Assembly (NCBI GenBank): GCA_963776925.1
Contig: CAVZON010000007.1
Location: forward strand, 141,158 to 205,157
Length of the DNA stretch: 64,000 nt
Source: an uncultured Chloroflexia bacterium
GTDB taxonomy: Bacteria > Chloroflexota > Limnocylindria > Limnocylindrales > CSP1-4
Direction: 5' to 3'
Position 1 is the stretch's first letter, and each line of letters opens with the position of its first letter. Below the pieces are notes generated by a model. That model was not told the DNA's origin. It ran no database searches and saw only the letters and a list, made by a program, of their open reading frames with translations. The translations under genes and the position numbers were made by a program. Positions 3,972 through 49,848 of the stretch are shown here, piece after piece.

Positions 3972-4290
3972 GACCCGCAGGTCGGTCGACCCGTCGAAGA
4001 TCGTCTGGGCAGGATCCTGGTCGTCGCTGTACGGCGCGCGGTCGTCGGTGATGGTGCGTCCCTCCGGTCGCAGGTGGACTCCGGAATGTGGTTATACGGC
4101 CGCGGGGGCACGGCGCGGACGGGCACCGTCGTACCGGTGTACATAGGACGAACGTTGCCCCGATGCACCCATGACGCATGGCGGCGGTACGCCCGGATGG
4201 CCGCCACCGGACCGTTGGTCCGACCGGTCGCCGAGCCGACCTGTGCTAGCCTCAGCGACCCCGAAACCCGCACGCAGGACGCCTCGCCAC

Positions 4291-7231: not shown

Positions 7232-7326
7232 CGCCCATCGGCCCGCCGCGCCGGGCCAGCAGCCTCGGAGCCGGACTCCGCCTGTCGCGGCCGACGGCTC
7301 TCGCGACCTGTGCGACCATCCCGCCA

Positions 7327-8967: not shown

Positions 8968-9097
8968 CGTCGGCCGTCGTCCTCCAGAGGGCGGAGCTGC
9001 CATCCGTCGCAGGGCGCCACGTCGCGGCAGCATAGACGCTGGCGGGGCCGCCGGAAAGACATCCGGGTGGGACGAGTGGTCGATATGCTGTCGGTCC

Positions 9098-10807: not shown

Positions 10808-12553
<1,746 letters not shown>

Positions 12554-23262: not shown

Positions 23263-25964
23263 TCAGTCTGCCGCCTCGACCGTGAGCGTGCCGGTCATGC
23301 CGGCCTCGGCGTGACCCTCGACGGTGCAGCGCACCACGTAGGTGCCCGGCCGATCGAGCACGAAGCGCAGCCGCTGGGTCTGGCCGGGCCGCGCACCGGC
23401 ATCGACGTTGGCCACGCCCTCGACCTCCCAGTCGTGGAAGATCGGGTCGTCGTTGGTGAACGTGACGACGACGACCTCGCCGGCGCGGACGGCCACGTCG
23501 GCCGGCTGGAAGCGGACGTCGCTGGCGGTGATGGCGACGTGCCGGGCGTTGGCGTCGATGAGCCGGTCCGCGGCCATCACGCCTCCGGCGAGGACGAGCG
23601 CCGCCAGGGCGATGGCGCCGAGGAACCAGGCCGCGCGGAGGTGTCCCGCATAGCCGTGGCGCCGCACCTCGTGGCGCGCCTGCGGCCGGGCGTCGTACCC
23701 GCGCAGCCGCAGGGCGTTGAGCACGACGCTGACCGACGAGAAGGCCATGGCCGCCGCGGCCAACGCCGGCGACAGGGCGATGCCGAAGGCCGGCACCAGG
23801 ACACCCATCGCGACCGGGATGAGCAGCACGTTGTAGGCGAATGCCCAGAACAGGTTCTGGCGGACGATCGTCATCGTCGCCCGGGACAGGCCGATGGCGG
23901 CCGGCACGAGCCGCGGATCGCCGCCGACGAGGGTCACCTCCGCGGCCTCGATCGCGACGTCGGTCCCGGTCCCGATGGCGATGCCCACGTCGGCCTGGGC
24001 CAGGGCCGGCGCGTCATTGATGCCGTCGCCGACCATCGCCACGGTCCGGCCGCGACCCTGCAGGTCGCGGATGACCCCGGCCTTGCCCTCGGGCAGGACC
24101 TCGGCCAGGACGCGGTGCACCGGGATGCCGACCTGGGCCGCCACCGCCAGGGCCGTGGACCGTCGGTCGCCGCTCACGAGCCAGGTCTCGATGCCGCCGT
24201 CGGTCAGCTCGCGGATCGCGGACGACGGCCTCGGCCTTGACCGGGTCGCTGATGGCCAGCAGCCCGGCCACCTGGCCATCGATGGCCACGAGCGTGACCG
24301 TCCGGTCGTTCGTCGCGGCCGCCTCGATGGCGCCGGTCAACGGGGCGAGGTCCACCCCGGCCTCGGCCAGCAGCCGCTCCGTCCCGACGATGACCGCGCG
24401 GACGATCCCGTCGTCGCCGCGGACGCTCGCCCGGACCCCGCCACCGACGACGGCCTCGAACGCGACGATCGGGGCGAACCCGAGCTCGTCGCGTCGGGCA
24501 CGGGCGACGATGGCCGCCCCGAGCGGATGCTCGCTGCCGGTCTCGGCGCTGGCCGCCAGGTCGAGCACGTCGGCGGGCGTGTGGCCGGGCGCTGCCACGA
24601 CCTCGACCACGGTCGGGCGCCCGAGCGTCAGCGTGCCGGTCTTGTCGAAGACGACGGTGTCGACGCGGTGGGCGATCTCGAGCGCCTCGCCGCCGCGGAT
24701 GAGGATGCCGGCCTCGGCGCCACGACCCGTCCCGACCATGATCGCGGTCGGCGTGGCCAGCCCGAGGGCGCATGGGCAGGCGATGACCACGACCGCGATG
24801 AACGAGGTCAGCGCCAGCGTCAGGCGCGGCTCCGGTCCGAACAGGAACCAGACGACGAACGTGCCGGCGGCAAGGAGCAGGACGGCCGGCACGAACACCT
24901 CGGCGATGCGGTCGACGAGGCGCTGGATCGGCGCCTTGCTCCCCTGCGCCCGGCCGACGAGGTCGACGATGCGGGCCAGGGCCGTGTCCCGGCCCACGGC
25001 GGTCGCGCGCATGACGAAGGTGCCGGTCGTGTTGCGCGTCGCGCCGATGACCGACGTCTCGGGTCCGACCTCGACCGGGATCGGCTCACCCGTGAGCATG
25101 CTCGTGTCGACGGCGGAGGCCCCCTCGACGACGATGCCATCGACCGGCACGGTCTCGCCGGCGCGGACGCGCAGCAGGTCGCCGACCACGACCGCCTCGA
25201 GCGCGACGTCGTCCTCGCGACCGTCGAGCAGCCGGTGGGCCGTCGCCGCCTGGAGCCCGATGAGCCGCCGGATGGCACCGGTCGCGCCGGCCTTGGCCCG
25301 CGCCTCCAGCCAGCGGCCGAGGAGGACCAGGCCGATGATGATCGTCGACGAGTCGAAGTACGTCTCCGGGTGGAGGCCGGCCTCGTGGATGACCTCGGGG
25401 AACGCGGTCACGACCACGCTGTAGGCCCACGCCGCGCTGGTCCCCACCGCGACGAGGGTGTCCATGTTCGCGGTGCCGTGGCGAGCGGCTCGCCAGGCCG
25501 GGCGGTAGAAGCGGCGTCCGGCCCAGACCTGGATGAACGTGGCCGGGATCAGCGCCAGCCGGTTGATGTCCTCCATCGGGATGGTCGTCTGCGGGCACGA
25601 ACATCGCGATCATGATCACGACGGCCACGCCGATCGACACGAGGGCCTCGCGCAGCAGCTCGCGGGCGTGCCGGTCGCGCTCGGCGTCCTCGGCCGTGAA
25701 CGTCGCCGCAAGGTCGTCGCGAGCGGATGCCGCCTCGCCGGTCGGGGCCGGTCGCACGTCATAGCCGGCGGCCTCGACCGCACCGACGAGGGCCGTCCGG
25801 TCGGCGACCTCGGGCAGGTAGCGGATGGTCGCGATCTCGGTGGCCAGGTTGACCGTCGCCGACTCCACGCCGTCGGTCTGGCGCAGGAACCGCTCGATGC
25901 GATTCACGCACGAGGCGCAGGTCATGCCCTCGATGGGCAGCTGGATCTCGGTGGGCGTCGTCAT
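23263..25964 (-). CDS. copA: copper-translocating P1B-type ATPase with an extra C-terminal TM helix and a fused cupredoxin-like domain; 2 frame breaks (about 25580 and 24230)
   Basis: N-terminal HMA domain: [57 protein letters not shown]. After the last canonical TM: an extra helix [22 protein letters not shown], then [30 protein letters not shown]...[17 protein letters not shown] (His, Cys, His, Met ligand pattern). Confidence 0.85.
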
Positions 25965-26639: not shown

Positions 26640-28478
26640 ATGTCCGCTGCGACGGCTCCCGCCCCGTCGATGTTCGCCGTCTTCCGCCGCCGCGACTTCT
26701 CGTTGCTGTGGCTGGCGCAGCTCATCTCGACGGCCGGGTCGTCCCTGACCGACCTCGCCGCCGGCATCTGGGTCTATCGCGAGACCGGGTCGGCGCTGGC
26801 CGTCGGCCTGACGCTGATGGCCACGGCCATCCCGAGCCTGGTCGTCGGGCTGCTCGCCGGCGTCTACGTCGACCGGCACGATCGCAAGAAGATCCTCGTG
26901 GGTGACCTGCCTGATCCAGGCGGTCGTCGTCGGCTTCATCGCGCTCGCCGTCGAGTTCGACTCGATCATCGGGTTGTACGCGCTGCTCCTGCTCAACGCC
27001 GGGGTCAAGCAGTTCTTCGACCCGGCCCACGACAGCCTCATCCCGGAGATGGCCAGCGACGAGGAGTTGGCCGCGGCCAACGCCTTCCTGTCGATCGCCG
27101 CCTTCGGTTCGACCGCGATCGGGTTCGCCGGCGCCGGGCCTGCTGGCCAGCACGGTCGGCCTGACCTGGGCGTTCATCCTCGACGCCGTCTCGTTCGTGG
27201 TGTGCGCCGTCCTCATCGGGCTGATGGGCCGCTACCCGATGCCGACCCCGGACGGGGACTCGAGCGTCAGCGGTCATCGTCGCCAACCTGAAGGACGGGC
27301 TGGGGATCCTGTTCGGCACGCCCGTCATCCGCTCGCTGCTCATCGTCGGCGCCTTCATGTTCGTCGCCTTCGGCCTGTGGAACGTCCTGCTCCTGCCGTT
27401 CTCGATCGTGGAGCTCGGCGCGACCGAGTTCGAGTACGGGTTGCAGGAGGGCCTGACCTCGGTCGGCTTCGTGGTCGGCTCGCTGTTCATGGCGCGCTTC
27501 GCCAAGCTCCTGCCCGAAGCGGCGTGGATCTTCGTGTCGATGCTGGCGATGGGCGTCCTGGGCATCGGCTACGCGTTGTCGACCACGGTGCCGGTGGCCA
27601 TCCTGCTGGTGACGCTGAGCGGGTTCGCCCAGCCACCGTCATCGGTCTCCCGCGCGGTCCTGCTCCAGCGCCACACGCCGCGCGAGGCGCGGGGCCGGGT
27701 CTTCTCCGCCTTCTACGTCATGCGCGACGTGATCTTCCTGATCGGCATGGCCGGCGCCGGGCTGGCGGACATCGTGGACATCCGGGTGCTCATCATCTTC
27801 GCGTCGAGCCTGCTGTTCGTGTCGGCCGCGTTCACGCTGTTCGCACCGGGCCTCGGGTACCGCACGTGGCGGACGGCGGCCGCGCGGCTTGCTCCGGCCG
27901 CCGGGCGCCCGGTCATGGCCGCCCTGCCGTATCGTGCCGCGACCCTGGCCGACTTCGACCGGCTCATCGGCAGGCTGCCGACGTTCGCGCGGCTGGCCGA
28001 CGACCAGCGAGCGGCCTTCGTGCACGACGCGACGGTCCGCGAGGTCCCGGCCGGGACCCGCGTCGTGGAGCACGGCGACGCCGCCTCGAACGCGTACTTC
28101 ATCCTCGACGGCGTGGCCAGCGCCGGGCGTCCCCGAGGAGGACGGCTCGTACCGCGGCCTGTCGACGATGCACGGTCGGCGACTTCTTCGGCGAGATCGC
28201 GGCCCTGACCGGCAGCCCGCGCACGGCCGACGTCGTGGCCGACGAGGACAGCGTCCTGCTCGAGGTCCCGGCCGAATCGCTGCGCGCGACGATGGTCGTG
28301 CCCGAGATCCAGCGGCTCGTCTTCTCGACGCTGACCTCACGCCTGCTGCGGACCGCAGGCGGCGGACCTGCCGCGTCTGGCCGGCCTCGACCAGGAGTCG
28401 CTGCGCGACCTGCGCACGCCCCAGCCGAGCGTCGAGGCGCTCCCCCGGTCCTACGCCGAGGGCGGTGGCACGACCTGA
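26640..28478 (+). CDS. second MFS transporter with C-terminal cyclic-nucleotide-binding domain; at least 5 frame breaks
   Basis: FAVFRRRDFSLLWLAQLISTAGSSLTDLAAGIWVY, LLNAGVKQFFDPAHDSLIPEM, FMFVAFGLWNVLLLPF, LQRHTPREARGRVFSAFYV. CNB part: LPTFARLADDQRAAF, NAYFILDGV, GDFFGEIAALTGSPRTADV. TGA 28476-28478. Confidence 0.8.
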
Positions 28479-28598
28479 CCCGTGTCAGGTAGGTGACAGG
28501 GGCCGCGGTCAGGCAGCATCTTCCCGAAGCGGTCGCCGACCCGTAGAGTGCGCACATCAACCAAGGCAGGATGGACGCGGGCGAAGGGACTGAACGTG

Positions 28599-28829
28599 AT
28601 GCAGAAGAACGTGAAACTGCCGAAGGAAGGCATCCATCTGACCCAACCGGACGGCGGCGAGAGCGCCCTGAAGTCGGAGCCGCTGATCGACAGCAACGAC
28701 GTGGAGGGCCACGGCCTTCCGCTCACCCCGCCGCCGAGCTTCGGCTCGCAGCGAACACCCGGCCACGGCGGCGAGAACATCCCGACGCCGGTCGACGACG
28801 ACAACGACGTCGAGGGCCACCGCGCATAG
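28599..28829 (+). CDS. small acidic Gly/His/Pro-rich protein (76 aa) with duplicated NDVEGH motif; hypothetical
   Basis: MQKNVKLPKEGIHLTQPDGGESALKSEPLIDSNDVEGHGLPLTPPPSFGSQRTPGHGGENIPTPVDDDNDVEGHRA. GAAGGGA lies about 10 nt upstream of the ATG and TAGAGT (-10-like) at 28544-28549. A terminator hairpin follows. Less GC-rich than the flanks. GTG 28596 is an alternative start. Confidence 0.55.
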   Translation: MQKNVKLPKEGIHLTQPDGGESALKSEPLIDSNDVEGHGLPLTPPPSFGSQRTPGHGGENIPTPVDDDNDVEGHRA

Positions 28830-28861
28830 CACTTCCCGGCTGACCAGCCACCGCACCGATG

Positions 28862-28893
28862 AGACCGCCCGGACCCCAGCCGGGCGGTCTTCT
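28862..28893 (+). terminator. stem-loop terminator after the small ORF (also 3' of the convergent S8 gene)
   Basis: AGACCGCCCGG-acccag(7 nt loop)-CCGGGCGGTCT (11-bp perfect stem, 28862-28872 / 28880-28890), then TCT. Confidence 0.6.
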
Positions 28894-28902
28894 CATGTCC
28901 GG

Positions 28903-29736
28903 CTAGGGCGTGGCCGCGTCTGCCGGACTGGCCGTCGCGGCGAGCAGGGCCTTGATCTCGAACGGGCTGGCCGCCGGGTAGCGCGAGCGCAGCCGGGCCG
29001 CCTGGCCGGCGAGGTGCGGCGCCGCGAACGAGTTGCCGGTCGCCCGGATCCGGCCGCCGTCCCGCCAGGCCACGTCGACGTCGACGCCGTACGCGCCGAA
29101 CTCGACCGGTGGTGACGGGTTGTAGAACCAGGTGTCGGGATCGGCGACGTCGTGCGCGGCGACCGAGACGACCGCGGCGAACGACGACGGGTACGACGGT
29201 CCCGGCAGGTTGTTGACCGCGCAGACGAGCAGGGTGTTGGCGAAGTACGCCCGATCGGCGACCTCGTGGAACGCCGCATACATCGCCTCCGATCGCGACG
29301 ACAGGCTGAGGTTGACGACCTCGATGCCCGCGTCGACCGCCCAGTCGACGGCGGCCGCGACCGCCCGGCCCTTGCCCCGGTTGTCCGCACCGAGGACCCG
29401 GATCGACCACAGCTCGGCCGCCGGAGCGATGCCGGCGATGATCCCGGCGCAGGCCGTGCCGTGGCCGACGACGTCGGTCGCCGTCGGGTCCTCGACGATG
29501 CGGGCGTCGTCGCCGTCCAGGTCGACCCGGTAGGTGTGGCGGAGCCGGTCGCCGACGGCCGGATGGCCGGCGTCGACGCCGGAGTCGATGACCGCCACGC
29601 GGACGCCCCGTCCGTCCGCCTCGCCGAAGACGCTGGCCCGATCGAGTCGGCCGAACGGCAACGGGACCTGGCGCTCGAGGTCGGACCGGTGGGCCGCTGC
29701 GAACGCCTCGCTCCAGGCGATGTGCGGCTCGGTCAT
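28903..29736 (-). CDS. S8 (subtilisin-like) serine peptidase without a signal peptide
   Basis: Triad contexts: VAVIDSGVD (Asp), VVGHGTACAGIIAG (His), ATGNSFAAPHLAG (Ser). No N-terminal hydrophobic segment. ATG overlaps the upstream stop (ATGA at 29733-29736). Intact, 277 aa. Confidence 0.85.
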   Translation of the reverse strand: MTEPHIAWSEAFAAAHRSDLERQVPLPFGRLDRASVFGEADGRGVRVAVIDSGVDAGHPAVGDRLRHTYRVDLDGDDARIVEDPTATDVVGHGTACAGIIAGIAPAAELWSIRVLGADNRGKGRAVAAAVDWAVDAGIEVVNLSLSSRSEAMYAAFHEVADRAYFANTLLVCAVNNLPGPSYPSSFAAVVSVAAHDVADPDTWFYNPSPPVEFGAYGVDVDVAWRDGGRIRATGNSFAAPHLAGQAARLRSRYPAASPFEIKALLAATASPADAATP

Positions 29737-30530
29737 CCCGATCGACTGGTGCGGCCGCTCCGGCCGGCGTGGCGGATGAGCGCGTCGAGCCAGTCGCTCG
29801 CGAGCTCGAGATGGTCCGGATCGGTGTCGACCAGCTGGGCGATCCGGTCGGCCAGGCGCCAGGCGGGATCGTCACGCTCCCGCGCGAGCGCCGCGGTGCG
29901 TCGCGCTGACGAGCGCCTCGACATCGCGCTCGCCGGCGGCATCGCCGAGGACCGCCTCGAGGCTGTCCGCAAGCAGGATCGCGGCATCGCGCTCGGCCCG
30001 GCCGGCGCGGGCGATGACGGTCGCCTCGCGGGCGAGCGCCGCGGCGATCTCGAGATCGTGGAGGTCGAACGACCCGCCGCCGCGCCGGTCGAGGACCTCG
30101 AGGACGCCGATCGCGCCCTGGTCGTCGATGAGCGGCGTCGCCAGCAGCGAGCTCGGCACGTAGCCGGTCGAGTCGGCCACGGATCGATCGAAGCGCGGGT
30201 CCTGGCGCGACGTCGGCGATGGCCAGCTGCTGGCCGGTCGAGAACGCGTAGCCGGCGATCCCCGCGGTCGCGGCGATGCCCAGCCCGACCACGTCACCGC
30301 TCGCCGGGCCGGCGGCCGCGACGAACACGAGCTGGTCGGTGGCCGGGTCGTGCAGGGCGATCGACGAGGCCTGCGCGTCGAGGACCGTCGCCGCCGTGGC
30401 GACGACCGCGTGCAGCAGCGGCTCGGCGGACCGCGGCTGGAGACGGTCGGCGGCGGCGAGCCGACGCGTGACCGCGACGAGCGTGTCGAGCGCCGGCGTC
30501 GCACCGGTCGCGGCCGTGATCGTCGGTCAT
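29733..30530 (-). CDS. GAF domain protein; about 3 frame breaks, start inferred
   Basis: LDTLVAVTRRLAAADRLQPRSAEPLLHAVVATAATVLDAQASSIALHDPATDQLVFVAAAGPASGDVVGLGIAATAGIAGYAFSTGQQLAIADV, then a frame change, then RQDPRFDRSVADSTGYVPSSLLATPLIDDQGAIGVLEVLDRR, then the tail RDDPAWRLADRIAQLVDTDPDHLELASDWLDAL. ATG 30530 overlaps the Crp stop (ATGA), but a frame change is needed within about the first 10 codons. Confidence 0.7.
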
Positions 30531-31264
30531 CGGCGGGCGGCCGCGGCCAGGCGGCTCGGATCGGGGATGACCAGGTCGTCGCCGTCGAAGCGGAGCAGCC
30601 CGTCGGCGACGAAGTCGGCGAGCAGGCGGTTCACCGTCTGGCGCGAGCCGCCGATCATGCCCGCCAGCTCGGCCTGGGTGTACGGCCAGGGCAGGCGCAT
30701 CTCGGTCCGCGGGAGGTCGGCGAGGTCGTCGTCCGAGCAGCCACGCTGTCGGGCGAGCTCGCGCAGGAGATGCCGGGCGAGCCGCCCGGGCAGGTCGAGG
30801 AAGTGGAGGTCCTCGACCTGGGCGGTCAGCCGCCGGATCTCCGCGGCCAGCGAGGCCAGCAGCGCCCGGCGCAGGGCCGGCTGCTCGTCGACCAGGCGAT
30901 CGAACGCGTCGCGGCGCAGGACGAGCGTCGTCACCGCGTCGAGGGCGACGGCCGTGGCCGACCGCGGCGCGCCATCGAGCAGGGCCAGCGTCCCGAAGAA
31001 CCCGCCCGGGCCGACGGTCGTCAGGATGGCCGGCTCCGAGCCGTCGTCCGCGGGCAGCGTGATCTTGACCTGGCCCTCGGCGACGACGAACAGGGCATCG
31101 CCCGGGTCGCCGGCGTGGAACACGGTCTCGCCCCGTCGGAACCGTCGCGGCCGGAGCGCGGCGGCCACGAGCCCGAGGGTCTCGTCGTCGACGCCCGCGA
31201 ACAGCCCGCACGCCTGGAGGGCGGCGATCGCCATGTCTGCGGGGACCCCCGAGGTACCGACCAT
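30527..31264 (-). CDS. Crp/Fnr family transcriptional regulator (CNB domain plus HTH)
   Basis: LQACGLFAGVDDETL, GDPGDALFVVAEGQVKI, GGFFGTLALLDGAPRSATAVA, YTQAELAGMIGGSRQTVNRLLADF. Intact. Possible starts: ATG 31264, ATG 31234 or GTG 31306. Confidence 0.85.
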   Translation of the reverse strand: MVGTSGVPADMAIAALQACGLFAGVDDETLGLVAAALRPRRFRRGETVFHAGDPGDALFVVAEGQVKITLPADDGSEPAILTTVGPGGFFGTLALLDGAPRSATAVALDAVTTLVLRRDAFDRLVDEQPALRRALLASLAAEIRRLTAQVEDLHFLDLPGRLARHLLRELARQRGCSDDDLADLPRTEMRLPWPYTQAELAGMIGGSRQTVNRLLADFVADGLLRFDGDDLVIPDPSRLAAAARR

Positions 31265-31290
31265 GGACCGATGGTAACGCCCTCCGTGGG

Positions 31291-31306
31291 GTGGTCGTCC
31301 GACCAC
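31291..31306. promoter_or_regulatory. inverted repeat GTGGTCG-TC-CGACCAC in the crp/cyclase divergent region
   Basis: Perfect 7-bp arms with a 2-nt spacer, read directly from the sequence. Confidence 0.4.
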
Positions 31307-31342
31307 GCCCGGCGCCGCCGTCGCGGGCCTGCGACGCGCGCT

Positions 31343-31360
31343 CGACCGTCCACACGGTCG
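31343..31360. promoter_or_regulatory. inverted repeat CGACCGT-CCAC-ACGGTCG just upstream of a -10-like TAGACT (31368-31373) of the cyclase gene
   Basis: Perfect 7-bp arms. It shares the GGTCG/CGACC half-site with the repeat at 31291. TAGACT lies 9 nt before ATG 31383. Confidence 0.4.
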
Positions 31361-31382
31361 CGGTCGCTAGACTCGGGGCTGC

Positions 31383-34300
31383 ATGGACGTGGTCGTCTGC
31401 CCCAGCTGCCGGGAGGAGAACCCGGCAAAGTTCCGGCTGTGCGGGTTCTGCGGAACCTCTCTCGCACCAGCCGAGACCGTCGCCTGCCCGTCATGCGGTG
31501 AGGAGAACCCCGGTCGATTCCGGTTGTGCGGGTTCTGCGGGACCACGCTCCAGGCCGGCGCCGCTCCCCCACCGCCGGCCCCGGCGCCTGCCGTCCCGAC
31601 CCAGCTCGGGGCGTCCGAGGTGCGCAAGCCGGCGACGTTCATCTTCGTCGACCTCAAGGGCTCGACCGCGCTGACCGAGCGCATCGACCAGGAGGCGATG
31701 AGCGAGATCAAGCGGCGCTACTTCACGGTCATGGCCGCCCAGATCGAGCGTCACGGCGGGACGATCGAGAAGTACATCGGCGACGCGATCATGGCCGTGT
31801 TCGGGATCCCGCGAGCGCACGAGGACGACGCGCTGCGGGCCGTCCGGGCGGCCCACGGGATGCAGCAGGAGCTGGCCGGGCTCAACGAGGACTTCCAGCG
31901 CTTCTACGGCGTCGAGCTGGCCAACCGGACCGGCGTGAACACCGGCGAGGTGGTGGCCAATACCGATCCGACCGCCAACCAGCAGCTGGCCACGGGCGAC
32001 ACGGTCAACGTCGCGGCGAGGTTGGAGCAGGCCGCGCCGGCCAACGAGATCCTCATCGGCGAGACGACCTACGACCTCGTTCGCGGGCACGTCGAGGTGG
32101 AGGAGGTCGAGCCGCTCGAGCTGAAGGGCAAGTCGGAGCGGGTACCGGCGTACCGGCTGATCCGCATCCGCGAGGCCACCGAGGAGCGCGGTGGAGACCG
32201 TCAAGGCGGCGCCGCTCGTCGGGCGGCAGGCCGAGTGGACGACACTCGCAGGACGCGCTCGACACGGTCGTCGCAGAGCAGCGCACGGGGCTCGCGACCG
32301 TCGTCGGCGATCCGGGCGTCGGCAAGACGCGCCTGGTGAAGGACTTCACGGCGGCCCAGGCCAAGACCGCGCGGATCGTGCACGGCCGCTGTCCGCCGTA
32401 CGGCGACGGCATCACCTTCTGGCCGCTCGCGGAGGTCGTCCGGGAGGCTGCCGGCATCACCGACGAGGACAACCCTGAGCACCGCCCGCGGGAAGCTGGA
32501 CGCGATCCTCGAGCCGGCCGGCGCCGATGGCACGGCCATCGCTGACCGCGTCGCGTCGGCGATCGGGCTGTCCGTCACCCCGTTCCCCGTCGCGCGAGCT
32601 GTTCTGGGGCGGGCGCCGTCTGCTGGAGACGCTGGCCACGGACCGGCCCGTCGTCGTCGTCGTCGATGACCTGCACTGGGCCCAGCCGACGTTCCTCGAG
32701 TTCCTGCGGCACATGGTCGACACGTCCACGAGTGCGTCGATCCTCATGCTGTGCACCGCCCGCCACACGCTTCTCGAGCGGCACGTGGACTGGACCGAAC
32801 GTCCGATCGGGCCGATGCTCTTGCTGGAGCCACTGACCGCCGAGGAGTCCGGCGGGCTGGTCGACCACCTCCTCGGGTCGAGCGGGCTGGACGCGGTCGT
32901 CCGCGACAAGGTCGTCGCCGCCGCCGACGGCAACCCCCTGTTCGTGGAGCAGATGGTCTCGATGCTCGTCGACAAGGGCCTGCTCCGCCGGGTGGGCGAC
33001 ACCTGGGCGCCGGCGGAGCAGATCGTCGACCTCGCGGTCCCGCCGACCATCCAGGCCCTCCTCGCGTCGCGGCTCGACGACCTGTCCCGGGAGGAGCGCG
33101 CCGTCGTGGAGCCGGCATCCGTCATCGGGCTGGTGTTCTTCGAACCGGCGATCGAGGAGATGGTCCCGCAGCTGGCGAAGGATGGCGTGGTCCTCCAGCT
33201 GGACTCCCTCGACGCCAAGCAGTTCGTGGCCCGCGACCAGGCCGACCCCGAGGAGGAGACCTATCGCTTCCGCCACGGGCTGATCCGCGAGGCCACGTAC
33301 GGCAGCCTGCTCAAGCGGACCAGGGCGGTGCTCCACGAGCGCTTCGTGACGTGGGCCGAGCGCGTCAACCGCGAGCGCGGCCGGGAGCAGGAGTTCGAAG
33401 AGATCCTGGGTTTCCACCTCGAGCAGTCGTACCGCTACCGGACCGAGCTCGGTCCGCTCGACGATGCGGGGCGGGAGCTCGCGCGCCGGGCATCCGCCAA
33501 GCTTGGCTCGGCCGGGCATCGCGCCTTCCTGCGCGGCGACCTGCCCGCGGCCAGCAACCTCCTGCGGCGCGCGGCGGCGGTGCTGCCGCCGGGCGACATC
33601 GGGCGGCTCGAGCTGCAGGCCGATGCGATCGGCGCGCTGTCCGAGTCGGGCGAGTTCGAGGAGGTTCGGCGGCTCATCGACGAATCGCTGGCGGACGAAT
33701 CGGTCGCCATCGACGCACGGGGCGCTGCCCGGGTACGCCTTGCCGCCATCGACTCGGACCTGTTCGGGATGGACGAATCGATGTCGCTCGACAAGGCCAT
33801 GGAAGCGATCGACACCCTGCTCCAGGAGATGGTCGCCTCGGGCGACCACGGCGGGATCGCCCGCGCGTGGCGGACGCTGATGGTCATCCATGGCACGGCC
33901 GGGCGGATCGATGCCTGGACGACGGCCGCGGAGGCCGCAGTCCGCCACGCGGACCTCGCTCACGACGACCGCATCGCTGGCCGCGGCGTGATGGGCTATG
34001 TCTCGAGCGCCGTCCATGGCCCGCGGCCGGTCGACGAGGTCCTCCCGCGCTGCGAGGCCTACCTCGACCGCGTCCATGGCGATCGGACGTCCGAGGCGAC
34101 GGTCAAGGCGGCGATGGCCCAGCTGTATGCGATGGCCGGCGACCGCGAGCGTGCTCGGGAACTGGCTCGTGAGTACCGGACGACGCTGCTCCAGCTTGGG
34201 CCCAGCGTCAGTGGTGCGTCGACGTCGCTCGAGACCTCACGCATCGACCTGCTGGCCGATGACGCGGAGTCGGCCGAACGCGACCTTCGTCGCGACTTCG

Positions 34301-34740
34301 ATGACCTCGGTCTCCTCGGTGAGCGCTACTTCCGGTCGACCATCGGCGCGATGCTGGCGCGTGTCCTCGCCATCCGTGGCGACGCGGAGGGGGCCATCCA
34401 GCTCGCCACCGAGGTCGCCGAGCTGGCCGACCCGGAGGATCAGGTCACCCAGATCATCTGGCGACTGGCGAAGGCTCGCGGCCTGAGCCGGCGTGGGGAT
34501 GCCGGCCCGGCGATCGAACTCGCTGATGAGGGTGTCGGGATCGCCGTGGACACGCCGGAGTACGTCGTCTTCCTGGCCGACGCCTACCTCGATCTGGGCG
34601 ACATCCACGCCGACCTCGGCGATCGCGAACGGGCGACCGCTGCCTGGGCGCGGGCGCTGGAGCTCGCCACCGCCAAGGGCGATGTCGGGTCCGCGGCCGG
34701 GCTGCGGGAGCGACTCGACGCGGTCCCGGCACCCGGCTGA
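31383..34740 (+). CDS. double zinc-ribbon / class III adenylate-guanylate cyclase / P-loop STAND ATPase / TPR-like protein; about 4 frame breaks
   Basis: Two CPxC...CGFCG ribbons: VCPSCREENPAKFRLCGFCG and ACPSCGEENPGRFRLCGFCG. Cyclase core: ATFIFVDLKGSTALTERI, GGTIEKYIGDAIMAVFG, NRTGVNTGEVV, GDTVNVAARLEQ. P-loop: VVGDPGVGKTRL; VVVVVDDLHWAQPTFLEFL. Long helical-repeat C-terminus. No HTH at the end. Confidence 0.85.
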
Positions 34741-34819: not shown

Positions 34820-35969
34820 TCACTTGCCGCGGACGACCCCGTTCTCGGGGAACCGGACGGTGAACGTCCAGGTCTCGCCGTCGTAGATCGACGCCGTCCA
34901 GCAGTCGGTCGTCTTCTGGGCGGTGCATTCGGACTTCTTCGAGGTGTCGATGGTCACGGTCTTGGTCGCACCGACGTGGACGATGCCGGCCTTGTTGATG
35001 TTGAAGCCGGCCGGAAGGGTGTTCCAGACCAGCGTCACCTCGATATAGCCGTTCACCTTGGTGCCGTCATTGACCGAGATCTCGAAGGCATCGCCGAAGC
35101 AGGTGGTGGCGCTACCGCAGGCAGTGGTCGTGTCGGCGGCGCCCAGCTCCACGAGAAGCGCCTTGACGACGGCGTTCTTGTTCGTCGCGCCGACCGGCAC
35201 GATCAGGTCGATGGCCTGGTCGCAGCCCGTGCCGAGGAACCCGGTCGTGTCGAGCTGCTTGGCGAGTCCGGCAGGGAGGTAGCCCTGCAGGCCACCACAG
35301 CCGGGTTCGAGGATGTCGACGACACCTTCGGCCGCGAAGGTATCGAGGTTCGCGGCGCCACCGTTGTCGTTGGCGTTCTCGGCGACCTTGACGGTCGCCT
35401 TGAGGTCCAGCACGTCGGCCGTCCCCGCGGTCAGCAGCAGCGTGATCGTGAAGGACTTGCCCTTGGCGAGCGATCCGACGTCGCAACTGACGGGTCCGCT
35501 CGTCGGCTGCTGGCAGGTCTTGGCTCGGGGAGGTCGAGACGACCGTCAGGCTCGACCCGTCCGTGAACGCGACCGGGAACTCCGGGATCGTCGGGGGCGT
35601 GGTGTAGGACTCGTCGACCATCGGCAGTCCGTCGAGCCCGACCTTGAACTGCACGTTGTTGATCGTCTGCTGTCCGCCGTTCTTGACCGAGACGACGAGC
35701 AGGGACTGCTCACCTTCGCTGACCGGCGTGGTCGTCAGGACGCCGTTGTCGATCGCGGCACCATTCAACGAGCCGATCGTGATGAGCCGGGTGTCCGCGG
35801 CGAAGGCTGGCACGGCTCCGGCCAGGAGCAACGCCCCGGTCAGGAGGGTGGCCAACAGGCCGACCCCGGTGCGGTGGGTACGGGCTTGCACGGATGTGTC
35901 CCCTTCCAAGTCGACGCCATCGGCGTCATGCGCGCTCTGCGCGAGCCTGGCTCGCGGCTGCTTAGACAT
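34820..35969 (-). CDS. secreted hypothetical protein; 1 frame break near 35520
   Basis: Signal peptide GVGLLATLLTGALLLAGAVPAFA-AD. Beta-rich, Cys-containing mature part (SLLVVSVKNGGQQTINNVQFKV, GKSFTITLLLTAG, ECTAQKTTDCW). Less GC-rich than the neighbours. No family assigned. Confidence 0.6.
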
Positions 35970-36166
35970 TCGATCGGCCTTCGACTGGCCCCTCGGTCCT
36001 GGGACGAAAGTACCGATCAGCCGAGCGTGCGGTAGGCCCGAGTCGATGTCAAGTCACCTTGCTGACAGGCTCGGGTTCCGCTCTGATACTGGTGCATTGT
36101 CGCACCGGAATGTGCGGTCCGGTGCGGTCCGGACCCCGGTTCGAGGGCCGGAGGATATCCCAGCGC

Positions 36167-36704
36167 TCAGGAACGTGGGACGGGACGCATCGGGTAGACA
36201 CCGACGACGATCGGCGTGCGGGGGTCGAGCGACAGCTCGTAGCCGATCTCGCCGCCCCGCAGCAGGTCGCCCAGAAGGGTCCCCTCCCGCTGCGGCAGAC
36301 CGACGTAGATGGCTCCGCCGCCGTCCATCGAGACCTGGGTGACGTCGTCGTCCTGGCCGTCGATCCCGAACCGTCGACGTAGCTCGTGCATCGGCACGTA
36401 TGGGCGGCTCTTGATGAACCGGCGCAACTGCGGTGCGGTGCAACCGTTGCCGGTGAGCTGGCCGCCGTTGGCGTGCACCGGCGGGCCCAGGCGCGACCGG
36501 TGGGGCCGGTGGGACCAACGCCGCCGGAGCACCGCCACCGCCGTTCACGTGGGACGCGGCAGCCTGCGCCGGGGGCACGGTCGGCTCGGACGGTCGGGCG
36601 TCGACCGAGGTGGGGCGCGGCGCCCCAGGGTCGACGGCCGCCGGCGGCGCGCCTTCGGGGCGTGGCCGTCCGTGGTGGCGCGATCGGCCGTGTCGCCGGC
36701 TCAT
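36167..36704 (-). CDS. hypothetical protein with Pro/Ala-rich N-terminus; 1 frame break, start tentative
   Basis: The C-terminal 90 aa are well-behaved coding sequence (APQLRRFIKSRPYVPMHELRRRFGIDG...GEIGYELSLDPRTPIVVGVYPM). The N-terminal MSRRHGRSRHHGRPRPEG... is in another frame. Confidence 0.4.
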
Positions 36705-36828: not shown

Positions 36829-37976
36829 TCAGCCGTCGACGATGTACAGCTCGCGCGGCGCCCCGTTGAGGACCGACCGGCCCGTCCGGGCCGCACACGA
36901 CGATGTCCTCGATGCGGGCGCCGTACTCGCCGGGGAAGTAGATGCCCGGCTCCACGCTGAAGGCCATGCCCTCCGCGAGCGGCAGGTCGTTGCCCGCGAC
37001 GAGGTACGGGTCCTCGTGGCCCTCCAGGCCGATGCCGTGCCCGGTCCGGTGGAAGAACGCCTCGCCGTAGCCCTCGGCGTCGATCGGCGCCCGCGCCGCC
37101 GCGTCGATCGCCTCGCAGGCGATGCCGGGGCGGACCGCGGCCGTGCCCGCGGCCTGGGCGTTGTACAGGACGTTGAACAGGTGCCGGAAGCGCTCGTCCG
37201 GCCCGTTGGCCGGATCGCCACCGGTCACCCACAGGGTCCGGGTGATGTCGGACCCGTAGCCGCCGAGGGTCCCGCCGATGTCGAGCACGATCGGCTCGCC
37301 GGCCTGGATCACCCGGTCCGACGCTTCGTGGTGGGGTGATGCGGAGTTCGGCCCGGAGCCGACGATCGCGAAGTGCGCCTCTTCGTGGCCTTCGGCGATG
37401 AGCTGCTCACGGACCTCACGCGGCGACGTCCGCCTCCGTCCGCCCGATGAGCCGCCCGGCTGCGATCCGGGCCACGACGCGATCGGCGGCCTCCGCGGCC
37501 AGCCGGAGGAGCGTGATCTCGTCGGCGTCCTTGACCATGCGCAGGGAGCGCAGGACGCCGGACGCCAGCTCGAACGGGGTGCCCGGCCCGAGCGCCGCCT
37601 GCAACCGCAGCACGTGCATCGCCAGCATCGTGTCGCTCACGGCCACGCGATCCGCGCCGGACAGGCCGGCCGTGGCCAGGGCGTACGGATCGTCGGTCTC
37701 GTCCCAGGTCGCGATCCGCACCGCGGTCCGAAGTCCGGCCTCGGCCGCACCACGCTCCAGGCGCGGCACGACGATGACCGGCGCCTCGGCGGGCCGGACG
37801 ACCAGCAGCGTCAGCCGCTCGAGCGGCATGGCCTCGTAGCCGGTCAGGTAACGCAGGTCGGAACCGACCCCGATGAGCAGGGCGGACACGCCCGCTGCCG
37901 CGGCTGCCTCGCTGGCGGCCGTCAGACGCGCGGCGTAGCGCTCGGCCGCGACGACCGGACGTGCGGCGACGGTCAT
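36829..37976 (-). CDS. M24B Xaa-Pro aminopeptidase/dipeptidase; about 3 frame breaks
   Basis: SDLRYLTGYEAMPLERL, VKDADEITLLRLAAEAAD, PIVLDIGGTLGGYGSDITRT, FFHRTGHGIGLEGHEDP, MAFSVEPGIYFPGEYGARIEDIVV. ATG overlaps the upstream stop (ATGA 37973-37976). Confidence 0.85.
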
Positions 37977-47137: not shown

Positions 47138-48346
47138 TCAGGGGGTCGGAAGCGTGTCGAGGAAGTGGATGGAGTCGATGACGGCCTCCTCGTCGGCAGC
47201 GGTCACACCCTCGCCCGCGTACCACAGGACGTAGGCATCACCGTCGAGCTCGACGATCCAGAACGAGCGCGGGTCACCCAGCGCCATCGTGTACTCGCCG
47301 TCTTCCGAGGCGACGGGCGGATGGAACGCCATGATCTCGCCGGCCGGGCAGTCGACCCCGGCGTCCGACTCGATCGTCAGGTGGACCGCGGGTCGGCCAT
47401 CGACCGAGTCGTCCGTTGACGTCACGCTGAGGCCCGGCAGGTCGGCAAGGTACTCGGTGATGGCGACCGCGGAAGGCTCGATCGGCACGGGCTGCCGACT
47501 CGTGGCGCATGGCGCGTCGAAGCCCATCGGGTTGCGCACGATGGTGAGCTCGACCGAACCGTCGAAGGTGTGGATGACCGGGCCGTCGGTCGCTCCGCTC
47601 ATCGCCCACCGCATGGTCGGTAGGGTCGCCTGGATCCACGGGTCGAACGGGATGACGCCTGGGCCACCGTCGTTGACCGCACTCAGCGAGTGCACCCACG
47701 TCCGACCGAAGGTGGCGGCACGGGCTTCGCAGGCATCCTCGATGACCGTGAGGGTGAGGAACGTCCCGTCCGTCGACCGCTCCCAGTGATAGTCGGCCTG
47801 TCGTCGCCGATCTCGCATCCACCCAGCCGATGGGTGCTGACGAACGAGAGCCCGTCTGCGGCGGCGGCCACGGACGTGCTCCGGAGCGCGAAATCGCCGC
47901 CCCGAGGCGTCTGGATCCAGGCGGTCTTGCCGGCGTCCCAGTCGATCGACAGCTGGAGGGTGTCGCCATCGGCGCTGACGCCGGAGATGGCATCGGCTTT
48001 GGTCTGCCAGTCGCCGAGGACGGCGTCCGGCATCCGGACCGGGACGATCGCTGCCGGCGACGGCGGCGACGACGGGCTCGGCGATGGGCGAGGGTGCGGG
48101 GCCGGGCCCCGGACCGCCGGTCGTCAGCAGGCCGACGCCGGCGATCGCCAGCACGGCCGCGCCGACGAGCAGCGCGAGTCGAAGTGGGGTGGTCATGCGA
48201 GGGATCCTCCACGGGAACCAGTCCCGTTCTTGGGAAGTCGACTGGATGCGGAGGAGGGCAGCCTCGACCGCCGCCTCCGGTGCCTGGGTCGGTCCGACCT
48301 CGATGAACGAGCGAGCGGCGCGTTCGAGCGAGCGATCGTCGGTCAT
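47138..48346 (-). CDS. single-pass membrane protein partnered with ECF sigma (candidate anti-sigma/sensor), cassette 1; about 2 frame breaks
   Basis: ATGA overlap with the sigma stop. Cytoplasmic N-terminus: MTDDRSLERAARSFIEVGPTQAPEAAVEAALLRI. TM: LRLALLVGAAVLAIAGVGLL. Extracytoplasmic domain ends ...GDPRSFWIVELDGDAYVLWYAGEG...IDSIHFLD. Confidence 0.65.
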   Translation of the reverse strand: MTDDRSLERAARSFIEVGPTQAPEAAVEAALLRIQSTSQERDWFPWRIPRMTTPLRLALLVGAAVLAIAGVGLLTTGGPGPGPAPSPIAEPVVAAVAGSDRPGPDAGRRPRRLADQSRCHLRRQRRWRHPPAVDRLGRRQDRLDPDASGRRFRAPEHVRGRRRRRALVRQHPSAGWMRDRRRQADYHWERSTDGTFLTLTVIEDACEARAATFGRTWVHSLSAVNDGGPGVIPFDPWIQATLPTMRWAMSGATDGPVIHTFDGSVELTIVRNPMGFDAPCATSRQPVPIEPSAVAITEYLADLPGLSVTSTDDSVDGRPAVHLTIESDAGVDCPAGEIMAFHPPVASEDGEYTMALGDPRSFWIVELDGDAYVLWYAGEGVTAADEEAVIDSIHFLDTLPTP

Positions 48347-48900
48347 GCCGAGCGTCCTTCCTGGGCGTAGGCCCCCCCGTCGGGACCGGTCATGAGGACC
48401 TCCCGGAGGGCGGCGATGGCGTAGTGGAGCCGCGATCGGGCGGTCCCGGCCGGGATGCCGAGCAACTCGGCGACCTCGACCAGGGGCAGCCCGACGTAGT
48501 GGTGCAACACGAAGACCGCGCGCTGCTCGACCGACAGCCGGCGGAAGGCCCGCTCCAGCTCGTCGCGATCGGCCAGGACGGCGCTGCCGTCCGGGGTCGA
48601 CGGGCCGTCGAGCGACAGGCTGCGGACCTGGGCGGTCCACGGTCGCGCCCGGCGGGACTCGTCGTAGCAGGCGTGGACGAGGATGCGATGGATCCAGGCC
48701 TCGAAGCGCTCGGGCTCCCGCAACCGCGGCAGCTGGCGCCAGGCCAGGACGAGGGCGTTCTGCAGCGCGTCCTCGGCCAGTCCCGGGTCGCGCAGGATCC
48801 GCTGTGCGACCGCGTAGAGCGGTCCACTGACCTGGTGCACCAGGACGGTGAACGCCTCACGATCGCCGTGACGGGCCTGCTCGACGAGGAACGGGTCCAC
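48343..48900 (-). CDS. ECF-type sigma-70 family RNA polymerase sigma factor (cassette 1)
   Basis: Intact, 185 aa. Region 2: GDREAFTVLVHQVSGPLYAVAQRILRDPGLAEDALQNALVLAWRQL. Region 4: LSVEQRAVFVLHHYVGLPLVEVAELLGIPAGTARSRLHYA. Confidence 0.9.
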   Translation of the reverse strand: MDPFLVEQARHGDREAFTVLVHQVSGPLYAVAQRILRDPGLAEDALQNALVLAWRQLPRLREPERFEAWIHRILVHACYDESRRARPWTAQVRSLSLDGPSTPDGSAVLADRDELERAFRRLSVEQRAVFVLHHYVGLPLVEVAELLGIPAGTARSRLHYAIAALREVLMTGPDGGAYAQEGRSA

Positions 48901-49026
48901 ATCGACCCCTCGATCACCGCGACCTCGATGGCCGCGGACTACCCACTATGACTAGGTGGACCGGGCAGAACGTTCACACGGGACGGGCGTCACGGGACCG
49001 CCACGAAGGGCGCGTAGGATGCGGCC

Positions 49027-49848
49027 ATGACGGACCACCACGGCCACACCGGCGACGAGGCCGAGCTTCGGGCGGTCCTGACCGGTGAGCACCCCGGGAT
49101 GGCCACGATGCGTCAACGGATGCGGCACGTCCCGAGCACGCCCCGCTGCAAGATGTGTTGGGCGCCGTTCGGTGGCGTCGGCGGTGGCGTCCTGCGGCAC
49201 TTCGGGTTCAGCAGGTACTCGGGCAACCCGTCGATCTGCAACTTCTGCATCCGCCAGTTCCACGACAACGGCGTCACCGGCGCCGAGATCCCGGTGACGC
49301 TGCTGTTCGCCGATATCCGCGGCTCGACCGGCATCGGCGAGCGCGTGTCGCCGACGGCCTTCCACGACTTCCTGCGGCGCTTCTACGCCCTCGCCCTGGA
49401 CGCCGTGATGGCCAACGAGGGCCTGGTCGACAAGTTCGTCGGCGACGAGGTCGTGGCCCTGTTCTTCGGCGGGGTCACGGGTCCAGGGCATGCCGCCGCC
49501 GGCATCGCAGCCGCCGAGCGCCTCGTCGAGCGCTGCGGCCGGGCGGATGCGACACCGATGGGCCCGATCCCTGTCGGCGCGGGCGTCCACACCGGCGAGG
49601 CGTACGTCGGCACGAGCGGCCCGGTCGGTCAGGCGGTCGACGACTTCACGGCGCTCGGCGATCCGGTGAACGCCGCGGCGCGGCTGGCCTCGAGCGCGGC
49701 CGCCGGGGAGATCCTCGTCAGCGTCGACGCGCTCAAGGCCGCCGGTCGGGATGCGACATCCGGCGACCGACGGACGGTCGAGATCCGCGGCCGGCAGGGA
49801 TCGCTCGACGTGGTCGTCCTTCGCCCGGGAGCCGCGGTCCCGGCCTAG
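49027..49848 (+). CDS. class III adenylate/guanylate cyclase with N-terminal 4-Cys (zinc-ribbon-like) segment
   Basis: Intact, 273 aa. CKMCWAPF...CNFCIRQF, then VTLLFADIRGSTGIGERV, GLVDKFVGDEVVALFFG, VGAGVHTGEAYVG, FTALGDPVNAAARLAS. Confidence 0.85.
   Translation: MTDHHGHTGDEAELRAVLTGEHPGMATMRQRMRHVPSTPRCKMCWAPFGGVGGGVLRHFGFSRYSGNPSICNFCIRQFHDNGVTGAEIPVTLLFADIRGSTGIGERVSPTAFHDFLRRFYALALDAVMANEGLVDKFVGDEVVALFFGGVTGPGHAAAGIAAAERLVERCGRADATPMGPIPVGAGVHTGEAYVGTSGPVGQAVDDFTALGDPVNAAARLASSAAAGEILVSVDALKAAGRDATSGDRRTVEIRGRQGSLDVVVLRPGAAVPA

Follow-up and report, generated by a model that had tools for sequence, protein, structure and literature searches.

A conserved gene module of Limnocylindria that may couple cyclic-nucleotide signalling to cleavage of a VEGH-repeat protein

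We describe a conserved chromosomal signalling module found in a 64,000-nucleotide stretch of a metagenome-assembled genome (MAG) of the Limnocylindria-type Chloroflexota (contig CAVZON010000007.1, positions 141,158 to 205,157; this whole stretch is called the window below). The module has at its core a subtilisin-like peptidase (S8) and a GAF-domain protein, accompanied by a Crp-type regulator, a major facilitator superfamily (MFS) transporter fused to a cyclic-nucleotide-binding (CNB) domain and a small open reading frame (ORF) encoding a protein with VEGH-type repeats. These genes are linked across phyla, coupled through overlapping stops and starts and in part fused into single GAF-S8 chains; their catalytic and cyclic nucleotide (cNMP)-binding motifs are intact, and a conserved operator precedes the gene for the repeat protein. 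We estimate at about 0.5 the probability that the module couples cAMP signalling to cleavage, and perhaps export, of the VEGH protein. In the window its genes, together with a neighbouring cyclase-STAND gene, are arranged as follows:

26640..28492, plus strand: MFS_3-type transporter with a C-terminal cNMP_binding domain, MFS-CNB (Pfam MFS_3/MFS_1 and cNMP_binding, matched on pieces)
28599..28829, plus strand: small ORF of 76 amino acids with NDVEGH twice, MQKNVKLPKEG...SNDVEGHGLPLTPPPSFGSQRTPGHGGENIPTPVDDDNDVEGHRA (no family)
28903..29736, minus strand: subtilisin-like serine peptidase S8, 277 amino acids, catalytic domain only, cytoplasmic (Pfam Peptidase_S8, 8e-30)
29733..30530, minus strand: GAF-domain protein of ~265-280 amino acids, a GAF domain and a helical C-terminal region (Pfam GAF/GAF_2 in two frames)
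30527..31264, minus strand: Crp/Fnr-family regulator, 245 amino acids, cNMP-binding domain and HTH_Crp_2 (Pfam 1.8e-25 and 5.9e-15)
31383..34740, plus strand: class III nucleotide cyclase, STAND NTPase and tetratricopeptide repeat (TPR) sensor in one protein (Pfam, on three pieces)

Domains were called by Pfam scan of stop-to-stop ORF pieces, and every domain that a first-pass annotation had named for 26640-34740 was found where it had been placed. The layout described there, divergent and convergent pairs with overlapping stops and starts, also holds: crp and the cyclase gene point away from each other, S8 and the small ORF towards each other, and ATGA stop/start overlaps, read directly, lie at crp/gaf (30530-30527) and gaf/S8 (29736-29733). 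To judge from these overlaps gaf is translationally coupled to both crp and S8. The start of crp is the ATG at 31264 and not, as earlier proposed, the GTG at 31306.

We searched one genome per species (GTDB) and found 408 genomes with a relative; the tallies that follow come from the best 80 loci, all from Limnocylindria-type Chloroflexota, and were made by tblastn with denominators that vary among the 80. GAF lies directly upstream of S8 in 77/77 loci, Crp lies upstream of GAF in 70/74, and MFS-CNB is found convergent and downstream of S8 in 52/68. Three long contigs share the wider neighbourhood, which runs from POR/CBS/M24 peptidase genes through a gene of 113-134 amino acids, Crp, GAF and S8 to a 65-70-amino-acid ORF, MFS-CNB and MGMT, followed by Cu-ATPase, thioesterase and KAS; 1/3 of these contigs carries the cyclase-STAND gene. 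The core genes are 64-96% identical among relatives and occupy a fixed backbone position with no mobility genes, and since the flanks are ordinary housekeeping genes we regard this as a backbone locus rather than a mobile island. The window has a GC content of 72% with no compositional break over 26-35 kb, so what the first-pass annotation called an island is neither one by composition nor a mobile or defence island. The same conservation also suits a plainer account, in which the juxtaposition is partly fortuitous, crp-gaf-S8 is the only functional operon, and MFS-CNB, the small ORF and the cyclase are neighbours by descent. Within Limnocylindria the entire 20-kb neighbourhood is syntenic, unrelated genes (MGMT, Cu-ATPase, KAS) included, so that adjacency inside the class proves little: it could reflect shared descent, and the functional argument leans on the fewer rearranged loci from other lineages.

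Actinomycetota and other lineages outside Limnocylindria have the gene set again, with unrelated flanks and in six or more orders. Nocardioides locus L084 reads MFS-CNB> DZR-cyclase-AAA_16-TPR> <Crp GAF-S8(fused)> VEGH 79-aa ORF> (arrowheads give the direction of transcription; DZR, double zinc ribbon; aa, amino acids), and a second Nocardioides locus, L093, has the same order (MFS-CNB> cyclase-STAND> <Crp GAF-S8(fused)> VEGH>). In L087 the order is <cyclase(beta-propeller) <Crp <VEGH 66-aa ORF, then GAF> S8> MFS-CNB>, in L088 it is MFS-CNB> <123-aa ORF GAF> S8> ... <Crp <CNB, and L091 holds two cyclases, CNB, Crp, GAF, S8 and a 64-aa ORF. L092 is a single overlapping operon, Crp> VEGH 41-aa ORF> GAF> MFS-CNB> S8> multi-GAF histidine kinase> Hpt> response-regulator cyclase>, and L089 and L090 are further rearranged module loci. 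The flanks of L092 encode a BrxC/BrxD-like ATPase and a PemK toxin (80-1342, 3874-4203), the sole context with a defence-island flavour.

A scan of metagenomes added 80 loci, of which the 19 with at least 2.5 kb on both sides form our diverse set. GAF is adjacent to S8 in all 19, in both orders, a Crp, MFS or cyclase partner is present in 15/19, and a cyclase-STAND gene in 4/19. Because the gene set is rebuilt in other phyla with unrelated flanks and shuffled order, its juxtaposition is not fortuitous. MFS-CNB, VEGH ORFs and cyclases rejoin GAF/S8 in other phyla, in other orders and on other strands and with no Limnocylindria flanks, MFS-CNB sits between gaf and S8 in L092, and the operator upstream of the small ORF is conserved across lineages; we therefore consider it very improbable that crp-gaf-S8 alone is the functional unit and the rest mere neighbours. 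The first-pass annotation had proposed a dedicated signalling-to-proteolysis module and had named unlinked orthologues as the finding that would speak against it; the orthologues are linked, with GAF next to S8 in 77/77 and 19/19 loci, GAF-S8 fusions and at least six gene orders, and the proposal is supported.

The S8 protein has neither a signal peptide nor a propeptide, and both its N- and C-terminus are without a hydrophobic stretch. The catalytic motifs D51 (DSGVD), H92 (HGTACAG) and S236 (GNSFAAP) and the oxyanion N175/176 are invariant in 26 family members, and with an Asp-His-Ser triad and oxyanion Asn in canonical motifs the protein has what MEROPS expects of an active S8 peptidase, as far as its sequence tells. 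Homologues number thousands of metagenome proteins of ~271 amino acids at 74-96% identity, some of them named Candidatus Limnocylindrales. The clade is narrow, an exhaustive search of 50%-identity cluster representatives yielding 221 clusters at E<=1e-30, and it has a conserved N-terminal motif, PAWSExF.

The partnership with GAF is closest in at least 10 clusters (P0132, P0134, P0147, P0188 and P0370 among them) in which GAF and S8 form a single chain. A search with such a fusion as query found fusions in cultured-lineage Nocardioides, as well as stand-alone S8s annotated as Actinomycetota, Acidimicrobiia and Dormibacterota. P0248, a further candidate fusion, was dismissed as a frameshift artefact. 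The structural model of the fusion is confident (predicted local distance difference test, pLDDT, 89; predicted template modelling score, pTM, 0.73), and sequence and fold searches of the PDB with S8 and the GAF-S8 model returned ordinary subtilisins only and no solved GAF-S8 architecture. Other fusions within the same clade (P0142-P0146, P0180) join S8 to Ser/Thr kinase domains, to a LuxR/GerE helix-turn-helix (HTH) or to an ABC exporter, at the exporter's C-terminus, and signalling or peptide processing seems to be what the whole clade serves. The ABC-exporter-S8 fusion has a PCAT-like layout with S8 in the place of C39. The GAF gene of the window, matched to the orthologue in relative L001 by three tblastn pieces, has its best PDB matches in 4mcw (an entry on a 'metal dependent phosphohydrolase', here its GAF domain), 5w10, PDE5, PDE10, PDE2 GAF-B and CyaB2, with E values of 1e-15 to 1e-3. 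Its nearest solved relatives are cNMP-binding GAFs, and it may sense a cyclic nucleotide; the NKFDE-type motif is kept in part only (F...AE).

The small ORF has no match in Pfam or NCBIfam, and its family comprises 94 homologous clusters, all called 'hypothetical' and none with a Pfam domain or a name; the searchable literature holds no occurrence of the VEGH-type motif. As tblastn missed the small ORF in distant loci, we used motif-based six-frame scanning. In 67/77 Limnocylindria loci this found an ORF with a D(V/T/A)EGH motif just downstream of S8, on the opposite strand, and most of the others carry a second class of VEGH-repeat ORF. This second class lies on the same strand as S8 and ~2-3.5 kb upstream of it; loci that have it are L045, L057, L061, L065, L068, L069, L072, L074-L079 and L083. 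Within -4 to +2 kb of S8 we count 194 copies of the motif, whereas the other 0.84 Mb hold 7 and shuffled DNA 5; its density is 4.38 per 10 kb near S8 versus 0.08 elsewhere, a 53-fold enrichment. Beyond Limnocylindria, inspection by eye placed a motif-bearing small ORF beside GAF/S8 in 7/8 contexts; no VEGH-type ORF was recognised in L086, a frameshift-ridden locus.

VEGH-repeat proteins are small and hydrophilic, with a motif of the pattern acidic-(V/T)-(E/S)-G-H. Close relatives have proteins like that of the window, in which the N-terminus, DVEGHG(L/I)PxTxPPS and PGHGGE are conserved and the tail is acidic and may include a second DDVEGH; distant relatives have 3-7 tandem units, each closed by DDVEGH. 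Repeat bodies differ among lineages and the motif alone is conserved, with repeat numbers from 1 to 10: the Nocardioides small ORF has three copies of DVEGH, that of L093 eight of RAPRVDGSDEDVEGH, that of L092 two of DDTEGHLK and that of L135 ten of ...AEPEVEGH, and L088 has a Gln variant, DDTEGQ. The second class ends in a conserved tail of ~45 amino acids, ...DDVEGH(S/N)M(L/I)xNPxLAR(E/D)LAxARExDIQRxxxxH...KK, which may be the functional product freed by cleavage. L030 has two tandem VEGH ORFs (10857-11186 and 11304-11576, minus strand), each with its own palindrome, and no detectable Crp gene beside GAF.

Upstream of the small ORF lie two further elements:

28483..28498, no strand: palindrome TGTCAGGTAGGTGACA, TGTC-N8-GACA, a putative Crp-family-type operator overlapping the MFS-CNB stop codon
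28544..28549, plus strand: -10-like hexamer TAGAGT, a candidate small-ORF promoter (conserved TAnnnT)

The operator signal emerged only from comparing orthologous upstream regions. The palindrome stands ~100 nucleotides before the ATG of the small ORF, and an exact TGT(C/G)-N8-(C/G)ACA is found at the same place in 61/76 relatives (~80%), with invariant half-sites and free spacers. Across 1.46 Mb the exact palindrome occurs 90 times against ~38 expected, and 65/90 occurrences are at the position upstream of the small ORF. It also precedes the second VEGH-repeat class and the VEGH ORFs of seven non-Limnocylindria loci (L084, L087-L092), where it is often paired, two sites standing 23 bp apart. 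Relatives keep a TAnnnT hexamer ~45 nucleotides downstream of the palindrome, and we infer that TAGAGT is the -10 element of the small-ORF promoter. An exact operator was not consistently found upstream of crp, gaf, the cyclase gene or MFS-CNB, and the canonical CRP site TGTGA-N6-TCACA is not enriched in the window (5 matches against 10.6 expected). Whereas the first-pass annotation treated the small ORF as an optional part of the block, its place next to S8 in 67/77 loci and the conserved operator before it mark it, on sequence evidence, as a core component and as the probable, conserved target of the Crp-type operator.

The regulator of the module is the obvious candidate for binding this operator. 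It matches PF00027 with 89 bits and PF13545 with 55 bits, both above gathering thresholds, and has the architecture of the Crp/Fnr superfamily. Its recognition helix reads SRQTVNR, and the Crps of the module share (S/T)R(Q/P)xVN, with R-(Q/P) where E. coli CRP has R-E; in E. coli CRP that Glu reads the base pair that separates TGTG from TGTC. Because the replacement falls on the very residue that reads this difference, and because gene and operator co-occur, the Crp of the module probably binds TGTC-N8-GACA. The phosphate-binding cassettes are intact in orthologous Crps: all those inspected have FFGELALL, and the Crp of the window has FFGTLALL (30977-31000, minus strand). The Glu of this cassette normally touches the ribose 2'-OH.

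The cyclase-STAND protein consists of a double zinc ribbon, Guanylate_cyc, AAA_16 and TPR, in this order, and measures ~1,115 amino acids after two frameshifts are mended. It has the makings of a STAND NTPase, namely AAA_16 in two frames, TPR/TPR_MalT matches and an N-terminal effector, and in the intact L003 orthologue nSTAND1/AAA_16 is called. The first-pass annotation had made it a member of the block, which holds in part: a 4.5-5.5-kb presence/absence block between sm113 (a small gene listed below) and crp, it is at this site in 18/55 relatives (33%), takes other places in L065 and L068 (downstream of S8) and in L062 (same strand), and adjoins the module with the same architecture in Nocardioides L084 and L093 and in L091, but elsewhere beta-propeller or response-regulator cyclases take its place. 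We conclude from this distribution that it is an accessory, facultative part of the module. L003, L006, L013 and L015 have no detectable crp between cyclase and gaf, and their cyclase-STAND proteins carry two tandem cyclase domains, a subtype unlike the window's single-domain double-zinc-ribbon version. On the far side of the block lies another conserved gene:

36167..36544, minus strand: sm113, a conserved small gene with no family (tblastn, 80% identity to the 113-amino-acid protein of L001)

It is present in all Limnocylindria loci with enough flank, and as it lies 25 nucleotides upstream of crp where the cyclase block is absent, the operon of Limnocylindria may begin with sm113. It was not seen outside Limnocylindria and is therefore lineage-specific, which makes its membership in the module uncertain.

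A variably present cyclase (18/55) beside proteins with CNB domains invites comparison with anti-phage defence of the Pycsar or STAND/Avs kind, in which the cyclase would sense infection and its nucleotide would activate CNB/GAF effectors to abort it. The cyclase domain matches Pycsar PycC profiles (81 bits at best), the CNB domains weakly match effector profiles (20-29 bits), and L092 alone stands beside the BrxC/D-like and PemK genes already mentioned. The PADLOC matches nevertheless reflect generic domain similarity, and no defence family was matched by the GAF protein, by the small ORF or by the STAND/TPR part. The locus moreover keeps a fixed place in the chromosomal backbone (POR, M24 peptidase, MGMT, Cu-ATPase, fatty-acid synthases) with relatives in 408 species-level genomes, shows no GC deviation or mobility genes, and in most genomes persists although no cyclase adjoins it; nor do known cNMP defence systems have a dedicated transcription factor whose conserved operator precedes a small gene. 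We give hardly any credence to a role in defence.

The last of the partners, MFS-CNB, is a 12-transmembrane MFS_3 transporter of ~610 amino acids once 3-4 frameshifts are repaired; a tblastn comparison with the intact 612-amino-acid L001 orthologue spans residues 1-608 in four frames. Its phosphate-binding cassette, FFGEIAALTGSPRTADV, is intact, and it shares an operon with GAF/S8 in L087 and L092.

These components suggest the following mechanism. A class III cyclase, here of a ligand-sensing STAND/TPR type and elsewhere of other types, would make a cyclic nucleotide, probably cAMP; liganded Crp would bind TGTC-N8-GACA and turn on the VEGH-repeat gene. The GAF partner would set the activity of S8, which would cut the repeat protein after the His of each VEGH, a site whose Val (P4), Gly (P2) and His (P1) suit the usual S4/S1 preference of subtilases. 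The freed fragments of 15-40 residues might then act in the cell or leave it through the cNMP-gated MFS transporter. We thus infer the protein that occupies the operator, the cyclic nucleotide made, the ligand of the GAF domain, and the cleavage and export of the repeat protein. For the VEGH protein as substrate we count the enrichment of the motif near S8, the conservation of the motif alone, the ABC-exporter-S8 fusion and the fact that QhpE, a processing protease discussed below, is the best curated match of S8.

Several observations, besides the in-class synteny, weigh against this mechanism. MFS-CNB is missing or replaced in 16/68 Limnocylindria loci, Crp is absent from 4/74, and the cyclase from two thirds; in the diverse set, 4/19 loci have GAF-S8 with no detectable CNB or cyclase partner, so control by cyclic nucleotides may not be universal. 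The Thr that takes the place of the ribose-contacting Glu in the Crp of the window may stem from a base error or mean that this genome has truly lost nucleotide binding, and the product of the cyclase is uncertain because its specificity residues are a Lys and a non-canonical Leu where adenylate cyclases have Asp. The proposed cleavage after VEGH follows from the logic of the motif only, and MFS transporters normally move small molecules, so peptides of 15-40 residues would be an unusual cargo.

The module could also be real with a VEGH protein that is not a substrate. It might regulate the protease, as a pseudo-substrate inhibitor or as an adaptor for which VEGH is the docking site, or be an acidic, His-containing peptide that binds a metal or another ligand and is handled by the MFS transporter, S8 acting on other targets. 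The small proteins are indeed acidic and His-bearing, the Limnocylindria versions with an extra conserved PGHGGE. Intracellular subtilases are restrained by short N-terminal peptides, which would suit an inhibitor. In Limnocylindria the conserved neighbours include a Cu-ATPase that has HMA and cupredoxin domains, which would fit a metal-binding role, as would the export of metal chelators by EntS and similar MFS_3 relatives. The Cu-ATPase is, however, unlinked outside Limnocylindria, the small protein matches no metal-binding family, and a repeat number that varies between 1 and 10 while the motif alone is kept is what one typically sees in multi-site substrates or multi-copy precursors rather than in a stoichiometric inhibitor. 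We judge a non-substrate role unlikely but a serious contender. The mechanism set out above, with the VEGH protein as substrate, can also be carried further, to a cross-phylum peptide factory in which a cAMP-Crp-induced precursor is cut after VEGH by a GAF-controlled S8 and the products are secreted by a cNMP-gated MFS transporter as signals or metal-binding peptides; taken whole, this picture is doubtful, and we offer it as speculation.

The coding signal along the window repeatedly changes frame in codon-position GC profiles, and the MFS-CNB, GAF and cyclase genes are each broken by 2-4 single-nucleotide frameshifts. The flanking Cu-ATPase, MGMT and M24 genes are frameshifted as well, at an overall rate of ~1 per kb, with the Cu-ATPase gene (to which 24014-25609 belongs by tblastn) in 3 pieces, the M24 peptidase in 3, MFS-CNB in 4, GAF in 3 and the cyclase in 3. 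The positions do not coincide with long homopolymers. Since almost every long gene is affected and many close relatives are long-read MAGs, the frameshifts are most likely uncorrected long-read assembly indels and not pseudogene decay; gene calls made from this contig will come out fragmented. Examples of the frameshifts, and the remaining features of the window, are:

23266-25952 (minus strand), 36832-37961 (minus strand), 26900, 27130, 27270, 30175, 29895, 32230 and 32500: frameshift examples
28861..28891, no strand: GC-rich hairpin separating the small ORF from S8, which converge here (RNA fold -30.7 kcal/mol, z = -4.5)
7075-8511, plus strand: Colicin_V-production/Trypsin_2 fusion, adjoining a free CNB-domain protein
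8554-9246, minus strand: free CNB-domain protein
34820-36053, minus strand: one or two frameshifted ORFs with no Pfam match, between cyclase-STAND and sm113
48346-48945, minus strand: extracytoplasmic function (ECF) sigma factor, divergent from the stand-alone cyclase
49027-49848, plus strand: small stand-alone class III cyclase

None of 200 shuffles was as stable as the hairpin, a likely bidirectional terminator. A scan of the entire window with Rfam gave no match, and sigma-70 promoter and terminator scans of this 72% GC DNA gave nothing usable. The N-terminus encoded at 34820-36053 resembles a signal peptide, ...LLATLLTGALLLAGAVPAFAADT..., and the product looks secreted. Of the more distant signalling genes claimed in the first-pass annotation, the second cyclase and the free CNB protein are those of the list; of the further MFS-CNB the MFS gene was confirmed at ~9.2-10.3 kb, with no CNB domain seen in that frame, and for the GGDEF-EAL protein we located a GGDEF motif at ~3476 on the minus strand.

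Few uncultured soil bacteria are as abundant as Limnocylindria, and to our knowledge almost nothing is known of their signalling; we found no description of the module in the literature or in curated families. If the mechanism is right, it would provide an example of a GAF-regulated protease, lead by a new path from cyclic-nucleotide signals to the release of peptides or to regulated proteolysis, and give a role to the enigmatic MFS-CNB fusions that mycobacteria also possess. The peptide factory, if real, would add a class of ribosomal peptide signalling that was unknown before, at home in Actinomycetota and in the abundant uncultured Chloroflexota of soil, along with the first protease to be regulated by GAF and the first MFS-CNB transporter to have a function assigned. 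Even with the substrate idea wrong, the cross-phylum linkage, the fusion proteins and the operator stand, and they are absent from curated databases. The defined unit is five gene families, one of them unannotated and recognised by VEGH, and a conserved operator, and it is shared with cultivable Nocardioides.

Among known proteases, S8 is most like QhpE (NF049966), its best curated match at 120 bits, both being short, signal-less subtilases that consist of the catalytic domain only. QhpE is cytoplasmic and acts on a small polypeptide encoded next to it, removing the leader of QhpC. S8 stays below the QhpE cutoff of 165 and is hence not a member, and the inspected contexts have no qhp genes (radical-SAM QhpD, QhpA/B/C), with a GAF partner and a VEGH-repeat candidate substrate instead. 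S8 is further from the mycosins of the type VII secretion system (TIGR03921; 117 bits against a cutoff of 279, no hydrophobic termini and no ESX genes nearby) and from cyanobactin PatA/PatG (TIGR03895; 27 bits against 421, with no modification enzymes such as a heterocyclase or DUF protein here). The intracellular subtilisins (ISPs) of Bacillus (PDB 7y6m, 7xr8; 66-76 bits to S8) are likewise cytoplasmic, without a classical propeptide and regulated post-translationally. ISPs are autoinhibited by an N-terminal LIPY/F extension; the S8 clade differs from them in its N-terminal PAWSExF and its obligate GAF partner or fusion.

The regulator resembles E. coli CRP and Mycobacterium Crp (Rv3676) in its CNB and HTH_Crp_2 domains and in its putative 16-bp operator of two-fold symmetry with 6-8 bp between the half-site cores. 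It differs from CRP in its score against the equivalog model NF008732 (78 against a cutoff of 266), in R-Q/P in place of R-E in the helix and in a TGTC rather than TGTG half-site; TGTCA-N6-TGACA-like sites resemble the site of CooA. The cyclase has counterparts in the mycobacterial cyclase-STANDs (Rv0386/Rv1358/Rv2488c class) and the TIGR03903 TOMM kinase/cyclase, where the cyclase is likewise N-terminal to AAA_16/STAND and C-terminal repeats. Its pieces match TIGR03903 weakly (63 and 116 bits, cutoff 706), and the window protein is set apart by a C-terminal TPR in place of a LuxR HTH and by the N-terminal double zinc ribbon; in Rv0386, too, the second specificity residue is non-canonical. Pycsar also combines a class III-type cyclase with cNMP-binding-domain proteins, and the profile matches to it are generic, but it is a two-gene cyclase-effector cassette, whereas our module persists without a cyclase. 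The cyclase of Pycsar makes cCMP or cUMP; that of the window, with its Lys and Leu, has an uncertain product. The effector matches of 20-29 bits are confined to the CNB part of Crp with no PycTIR/PycTM architecture, GAF, S8 and the small ORF have no place in Pycsar, and the locus is core-chromosomal and not part of patchy defence islands. The unusual MFS-CNB fusion is also seen in Actinomycetota in the uncharacterised Rv3728 and Rv3239c of M. tuberculosis, and we know of no report of either beside GAF-S8 or VEGH genes.

The proposed logic is shared most fully by systems in which a subtilase cuts a multi-copy precursor, such as cyanobactin PatE with PatA/PatG, the fungal KEX2 repeat peptides, and Bacillus Phr with subtilisin/Epr/Vpr. 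These have repeat units bounded by motifs, an S8 protease encoded alongside and, often, an exporter and a regulator. In our module, by comparison, the protease is cytoplasmic and coupled to GAF, the exporter is an MFS protein with a cNMP-binding domain, and processing is predicted. By this analogy the module appears closest in logic to the precursor-protease-exporter-regulator loci of ribosomal peptides, and what would be new in it is a cytoplasmic protease coupled to GAF, together with control by cyclic nucleotides at as many as three levels.

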